In this document: one piece after another, positions 56,266-56,375 of the stretch | Position numbering within the stretch: position 1 is the stretch's first letter | Layout: each line of letters opens with the position of its first letter | Assembly: GCF_003334335.1 (NCBI RefSeq) | Contig: NZ_QOWQ01000011.1 | From: Escherichia coli | GTDB lineage: Bacteria > Pseudomonadota > Gammaproteobacteria > Enterobacterales > Enterobacteriaceae | Direction: 5' to 3' (one strand) | DNA: 64,000 nucleotides | Program-made: the position numbers and the translations under genes | Notes under the pieces: model-generated | Database searches by the model: none | Told to the model about the DNA's origin: nothing | Seen by the model: only the letters and a program-made list of their open reading frames with translations

Positions 56266-56375
56266 TCTATCAACTGAAAATTCAGTATTTTCTTCTTTCC
56301 TCAAGCTGATTATTAGCCTGGAATAGAGAGTAGAGGGAACTCCCGATCGGGAGTGACGTAATTTGAGGAATAATG

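Follow-up and report, generated by a model that had tools for sequence, protein, structure and literature searches.

A palindrome before the lolA ribosome-binding site of Escherichia coli as the local form of a candidate mRNA stem-loop kept across Enterobacteriaceae

It is well established that short, G+C-rich hairpins that fold autonomously before a ribosome-binding site (RBS), with the Shine-Dalgarno (SD) sequence left free, can stabilize mRNA, either in a 5′ leader, as in the ompA type, or between cistrons, as with papBA or the REP elements of malEFG. Inverted repeats close to transcription starts are also familiar as repressor operators, and intergenic G+C-rich hairpins as intrinsic terminators and REP/BIME elements. 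The ftsK-lolA intercistronic region of E. coli contains an inverted repeat that can be compared with each of these systems. LolA is an essential lipoprotein chaperone and a component of an antibiotic-target pathway, and its level must exceed that of FtsK even though one transcript encodes both proteins.

The DNA analyzed here (the window) is a 64,000-nt stretch of E. coli that matched K-12 strains at 100% identity and has the gene order lrp-ftsK-lolA-rarA-serS-dmsA. An earlier note on this DNA had described a perfect 16-bp palindrome at 56339-56354, and a sequence check bears this out in full; ACTCCCGATCGGGAGT, on the plus strand, equals its own reverse complement and corresponds to positions 937,335-937,350 of MG1655. 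The same note had put the palindrome ∼12 nt before a GAGGAA SD sequence. Its placement just upstream of the lolA SD stands, and the distance is corrected to 10 nt from the end of the palindrome to GAGGA(A) (56365-56369/70). The annotated ATG of lolA is at 56376 (937372 in MG1655), and a further in-frame ATG is present at 56373. The features of this segment are as follows:

56339-56354, plus strand: palindrome and predicted RNA stem-loop (HP2), from sequence, RNA folding and arm conservation
56340-56344 (CUCCC) and 56349-56353 (GGGAG), plus strand: core arms of HP2, conserved across genera
56345-56348 (GAUC), plus strand: loop of HP2, variable
56339/56354, plus strand: outer A-U pair of HP2
56355-56364, plus strand: linker GACGUAAUUU from the hairpin to the SD, conserved in the alignment and single-stranded
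56365-56378, plus strand: lolA SD GAGGA (56365-56369) and start region, from the open reading frame list and the MG1655 annotation

A single perfect palindrome of at least 16 bp was found in the window, compared with 1.2 ± 1.1 in first-order Markov simulations of the window, 69% of which contained one or more. The perfection of the palindrome therefore carries no statistical weight by itself, and for the perfect 16-mer a chance origin stands. By sequence comparison, the property that exceeds chance is the inverted-repeat core that persists across genera, for which a chance origin is ruled out on comparative grounds. Among five sampled E. coli strains and K-12, the ∼110 nt upstream of lolA were identical except at positions 56339, 56346 and 56348. 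Two of these lie in the loop, 56346 being A or G (T in locus L004) and 56348 being C or T, and the third is the outer base, where A or G was found; the loop center in other E. coli strains read GGTC, GATT or GTTC. The exact 56-mer of K-12 was present in 3873 of 5412 E. coli records (∼72%). Given this variation, the perfect 16-mer and its central GATC are features of a lineage, and the conserved unit, as far as the alignments indicate, is the pair of 5-bp arms, not the perfect 16 bp or the GATC. Control by Dam methylation of the pap or agn43 type was considered and rejected, since the GATC is not conserved, with different centers in other E. coli and non-GATC centers in all other genera. Citrobacter, Salmonella and several E. 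coli strains have GGTC at this center, one change away from the K-12 GATC, and that change is what makes the palindrome perfect; either a quasipalindrome-perfecting (template-switch) mutation or a simple transition could account for it.

The comparative set comprised 80 Enterobacteriaceae loci fetched via LolA, to which Salmonella enterica, Cedecea, Mangrovibacter, Erwinia, Mixta and Pantoea were added. In most genera (∼20 genera), with Salmonella, Erwinia and Pantoea among them, arms of 5-6 bp, CUCCC(G)/(C)GGGAG, were kept along with a TGACG directly downstream (UGACG in RNA), the most conserved alignment columns being those of the 3′ arm and the GACG tail. Within the linker, G56355, A56356 and G58 (columns G35, A36 and G38 of the first sequence in the alignment) were near-invariant and make up the conserved UGACG together with U56354; further downstream, the AGG of the SD and the ATG were invariant in the lolA-upstream alignment. 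The loop was free in sequence (GAUC, GGUC, CGUC, CAUC, CGUU, CGU, UGU, UAU, ACAUC and others) and, depending on the taxon, 3, 4 or 5 nt in length, including a difference between the close Citrobacter relatives L012 and L008. The outermost pair was A-U in Escherichia, G·U in Klebsiella and G-C in Raoultella and Kluyvera. Changes that preserve pairing were seen in the arms of Siccibacter/Franconibacter (UUCCCG/CGGGAA, locus L036) and Pantoea (UCCCUG/CAGGGA), and U·G wobbles occurred in the stems of Salmonella and Kluyvera. In Cedecea and Mangrovibacter, the equivalent position holds hairpins whose sequence is unrelated. The stem has shrunk to 3 bp (CCC/GGG) in Enterobacter and is absent from Trabulsiella, Buttiauxella and Mixta, which implies that it is dispensable in some lineages.

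A separate observation concerns the Enterobacter and Leclercia loci with a decayed stem (L041, L047, L053, L059 and others), which carry CCCCATAT or CCCCATTT ∼45-30 nt upstream of lolA, with CCAGAA ∼12 nt further upstream, an arrangement limited to that clade. These sequences resemble what we take to be the −10 (CCCCATnT) and −35 (CTTGAA) elements of sigma-32 promoters. The sigma-32-like CCCCATnT was confined to Enterobacter, Leclercia and some Citrobacter versions and is not conserved.

In pair counting over 69 distinct sequences, 80% of cells were paired, compared with 36-62% in slid controls. Three of the core pairs were C-G in ∼65 of the 69, and because the arms barely vary, both the covariation score (0.092 against a shuffle mean of 0.120, not significant, for the same 69 sequences) and the RNAalifold consensus (3 bp only) are uninformative; single-sequence fold z-scores were ordinary. 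On sequence comparison, then, the predicted structure is backed by arms that stay fixed while the loop between them changes freely in sequence and in length, and by a few compensatory events, not by formal covariation statistics. The near-invariance of the arms also leaves room for sequence-specific recognition. It is doubtful, though well short of negligible, that the arms have been kept for a reason other than mutual pairing, with the hairpin and the perfect palindrome of K-12 being incidental and having no regulatory effect of their own. In that case GGGAGUGACG could, for example, be recognized by a protein, an sRNA or the ribosome (GGGAG is SD-like), or the region could be under constraint as DNA close to a promoter. 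Such an explanation accommodates the one perfect 16-mer per window expected by chance, the lack of significant covariation, the predominance of the 3′ arm and GACG tail in the conservation profile, the loss or decay of the element in several genera that retain lolA and the restriction of its perfect form to ∼72% of E. coli records. It sits less easily with variability that is specific to the loop while both arms stay intact, with pairing-preserving changes on both sides (Pantoea, L036 and the outer pair) and with the presence of a hairpin at the same position in taxa of different sequence.

As RNA, the 16-mer had a predicted folding energy of −8.7 kcal/mol, and the predicted value for a 24-nt DNA stretch containing it was −4.8 kcal/mol. 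In three transcript contexts, covering leaders that start from 56330 to 56336 and the whole intercistronic RNA, the arms were predicted to pair with a probability of 0.98-1.0. Pairing of the hairpin with the SD (56365-56369) or the AUG was found in neither the minimum free energy (MFE) nor the ensemble folds. According to these models, the hairpin folds autonomously and leaves the SD single-stranded. An SD-sequestering switch or RNA thermometer was therefore rejected, the hairpin being self-contained at 56339-56354 and the SD never being paired with it in the predicted folds. The suggestion in the earlier note that the palindrome could form an RNA hairpin has thus been strengthened, both by the predicted −8.7 kcal/mol and by the conservation of a hairpin-forming element across genera. 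The accompanying idea that it is positioned to modulate lolA expression has lost ground, since the SD and start codon are clear in all predicted folds, which is not the placement of a classical translational switch.

Other pairing and reading possibilities around the RBS were noted. All 8 nt of UUCCUCAA (56297-56304) complement UUGAGGAA (56363-56370), which covers the lolA SD. In read-through transcripts, GAGGGAA (56333-56339) and the true SD could be alternative pairing partners of this upstream segment; in the MFE fold of the intergenic RNA, it pairs with GAGGGAA and not with the SD. The triplets GUG ACG UAA at 56353-56361 form a two-codon mini-ORF right after the SD-like GGGAG of the 3′ arm, which is probably meaningless because GGGAG adjoins the GUG without spacing. 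A leaderless start from TAATTT at 56359 is ruled out by the invariant SD.

The location of the hairpin within transcripts can be judged from published maps, in which the following features are relevant:

55963 (936182) and 55785 (936004), plus strand: published transcription start sites (TSSs) assigned to lolA, within ftsK, from the supplementary table of PMC3415461
56231-56267, no strand assigned: REP-type palindromic element directly after the ftsK stop codon, with weak Rfam naRNA4 hits on both strands and a strong predicted hairpin

The two TSSs assigned to lolA by Kim et al. 2012 (PMC3415461) are weak, with 6 reads at U00096.2 position 936182 and 4 reads at 936004, and the table contains no TSS in the ftsK-lolA intergenic region. 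The conversion of coordinates was checked by locating the end of the upstream sequence given in the table, at window position 55963. The Term-seq list of Adams et al. 2021 has plus strand 3′ ends at 934931 and next at 938065, with none in 937214-937371. In the dRNA-seq data for Salmonella SL1344, the primary TSS of ftsK heads the operon SL1344_0898-0900 (ftsK-lolA-rarA), no separate lolA TSS is listed and the next listed TSS is that of serS. The text of Mendoza-Vargas 2009 lists a lolA RACE primer and no lolA TSS. Literature searches on the lolA mRNA or operon returned no relevant papers, and no data on lolA mRNA half-life or processing. Taken together, the TSSs inside ftsK, the absence of an intergenic 3′ end from the list and the Salmonella operon place the hairpin inside lolA-containing transcripts. 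The earlier note had asked whether the palindrome lies within the lolA mRNA; the E. coli TSS and 3′-end maps and the Salmonella operon support that it does, and a lolA TSS downstream of the palindrome, which it named as a refutation, finds no support in the published maps.

These data also bear on a role as a terminator, attenuator or 3′-end protective hairpin for ftsK, through which the stem would limit read-through into lolA or stabilize the ftsK mRNA. The stem is G+C-rich and follows ftsK, the same region contains a REP element and, in other genera, a long hairpin, and a U-rich stretch (UAUUUU) is found 5-6 nt past the stem in many genera. However, a scan of 56100-56500 returned 0 terminator-like sites, the stem is followed by GACGUAAUUU with no U-tract adjoining it, the Term-seq list has no intergenic 3′ end and ftsK-lolA-rarA is one transcription unit in Salmonella. 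The terminator or attenuator reading is already largely refuted by the scan, the Term-seq list and the Salmonella operon, and any role of this kind is considered highly improbable.

The REP-type element at 56231-56267 is separate from HP2 and is part of the same intercistronic RNA. Other genera have a conserved sequence (TTGCAAAG..GGTAAATAAGT) where this element lies, and in E. coli SK1144 (L092) an IS1397-family IS3-like element is inserted at this ftsK-adjacent REP. Within ftsK itself, a 39-nt tandem repeat of 5.7 copies with 88% matches at 54445-54665 (also 53435-53510) encodes proline/glutamine-rich linker repeats, and the length of ftsK varies between E. coli strains in the annotations examined.

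We infer that a weak local promoter and start site lie between the REP-type element and the hairpin, on the basis of the following features:

56290-56324, plus strand: predicted weak lolA promoter, from conserved block-to-hexamer geometry
56290-56299, plus strand: pyrimidine block, TTCTTCTTTC in its E. coli form and TTCTTCTGTC across genera
56295-56300, plus strand: −35-like CTTTCC
56319-56324, plus strand: −10-like hexamer TGGAAT

The distance from block to hexamer was constant across genera at 19 nt (rarely 20), the spacer was hypervariable and the hexamer in other genera read TAGAGT, TACAGT, TACATT, TAAAGT or CAGAAT. A constant distance between block and hexamer combined with a variable distance from the hexamer to the sequence downstream is the geometry of a promoter, not of a hairpin. 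A weak start is accordingly predicted from sequence at ∼56330-56333, which would put the hairpin at ∼+8 to +23. A consensus scan for sigma-70 promoters at 9/12 or better found none in the lolA upstream region. By what we take to be the RcsB box consensus, TCAGTATTTTCTTC at 56283-56296 or CTGAAAATTCAG at 56274-56285 would be candidate sites, and neither is claimed here. A sigma-E promoter, noted by eye from GGAACT at 56336-56341, was rejected on account of a −10 misfit and the confinement of GGAAC to Escherichia and some Citrobacter. According to papers citing Tao et al. 2012, lolA transcription has been reported to need activation by Rcs. The lack of a strong sigma-70 match fits both this reported need and the absence of the promoter from TSS maps, and the embedded local promoter is probably the Rcs-responsive lolA promoter of the literature.

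In most genera, a long hairpin (HP1) extends across the predicted lolA promoter (window 56290-56339; loci L024-L080, ∼100-45 nt upstream of lolA). Its base, CUUCUGUC/GACAGAAG, is conserved, and the 19-nt promoter spacer within it is G+C-rich, self-complementary and genus-specific, with no U-tract; examples are GCCTGCC-TTCG-GGCAGG in Enterobacter and ACGGCC-GTT-GGCCGT in Klebsiella. HP1 is degenerate in Escherichia, Citrobacter and Salmonella. Set beside this upstream hairpin, which has changed its sequence from genus to genus and is still self-complementary, the near-invariant arms of HP2 give a hint, at the level of sequence, of sequence-specific recognition and not of structure alone.

A site just downstream of the predicted local lolA start could also be a DNA operator, at which a dimeric transcription factor would bind the dyad CTCCC(G)...(C)GGGAG and thereby repress or modulate transcription. 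Many operators likewise have a free central spacer between arms that are conserved in sequence and do not covary, and ∼+8 to +23 of the predicted promoter is a classic location for a repressor. However, the half-sites are 3-5 bp apart depending on the taxon, even between close relatives in Citrobacter, and dimeric binders rarely accommodate such variation; the A-to-G and C-to-U changes that retain wobble pairs in RNA break the symmetry of the DNA. Mapped transcription, moreover, comes mainly from far upstream. A metagenome-wide pattern scan for a regulon, with CTCCCG-N2-3-CGGGAGTGACG, gave at least 124 matches. Among the matches listed, 29 were upstream of lolA and 95 elsewhere; the latter were in unrelated, mostly G+C-rich contexts at roughly the frequency estimated for chance, the one site that recurred among them was coding sequence from an organism outside the enterics, and a second enterobacterial site did not appear. 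We know of no transcription factor with a CTCCC(G)...(C)GGGAG motif. The DNA operator that the earlier note had offered as an alternative is thus weakened by the 3-5 nt arm spacing among close relatives and by the lack of a second enterobacterial site among the matches listed, and we consider it improbable. The scan also met a CRISPR-like array on metagenome contig L208 (3481-4030), whose ∼33-nt repeat (GTTTCAATCCACA + CTCCCGTACCGGGAGTGACG) contains the search motif and is unrelated to lolA.

The explanation that we favor, with confidence and doubt about evenly balanced, is an autonomous stem-loop of the leader or intercistronic region that serves mRNA stability or processing, or that insulates the lolA RBS from upstream structure. 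The palindrome would then be the Escherichia version of a small sense-strand RNA stem-loop in the ftsK-lolA intercistronic region and lolA leader, ∼10 nt before the lolA RBS; its stem is G+C-rich and 5-6 bp long, its loop of 3-5 nt is free in sequence and its UGACG tail is conserved. It would be transcribed within the ftsK-lolA-rarA read-through mRNA and within transcripts starting inside ftsK, and would stand ∼8 nt from the 5′ end of any transcripts initiated at the weak conserved intergenic promoter. For its function we infer a role in stability or processing; the stem-loop may shield the lolA-rarA part of the message from 5′-end-dependent decay or mark a processing boundary, and may also keep the lolA RBS clear of structure formed upstream. 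Action as an on/off switch is unlikely. A more specialized possibility, which we hold to be a long shot, is that an RNA-binding protein or ribonuclease specifically recognizes the stem-loop and its near-invariant GGGAGUGACG tail. Such a factor could set the LolA:FtsK ratio from the shared ftsK-lolA-rarA transcript, or could couple lolA translation or stability to envelope stress post-transcriptionally, atop Rcs control.

In summary, the hairpin is best regarded as an unannotated, small, conserved mRNA stem-loop of a familiar kind, and any part of it in the regulation of lolA is hypothetical. A conserved stem-loop of the leader or intercistronic region could contribute to the differential expression of LolA and FtsK and, if so, would offer a simple means of adjusting LolA in engineered strains or of investigating stress on the Lol pathway.

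Among known systems, intrinsic terminators and REP/BIME elements share with the lolA hairpin an intergenic location and a G+C-rich stem, and a genuine REP lies beside it. In contrast to intrinsic terminators, it has no adjacent U-tract or mapped 3′ end. Membership of the REP/BIME class was rejected, since a 56-nt query found a median of 1 place per E. coli genome and one copy in the window, and the sequence is unrelated to the REP consensus. A search of Rfam 15 at the gathering score gave no match for the hairpin and no hits in six orthologous loci. Repressor operators near a start site resemble the locus in the perfect inverted repeat of K-12, the conserved half-sites, the variable center and the proximity to the predicted +1, and differ from it in that the spacing of the lolA half-sites varies by 1-2 bp among relatives. 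Compared with the stabilizing hairpins of the ompA, papBA or malEFG-REP kind, the arms at lolA are conserved in sequence and show no covariation. The predicted local lolA start would also leave ∼7-8 unpaired nt at the 5′ end, more than the few nt that the ompA type tolerates, so that protection of this type would be weak. The likeness to these stabilizers nevertheless extends from the short G+C-rich hairpin predicted to fold by itself before an RBS with a free SD, through conservation as a structure with a free loop, to a polycistronic message in which more of the downstream product, LolA, is required than of the upstream product, FtsK.
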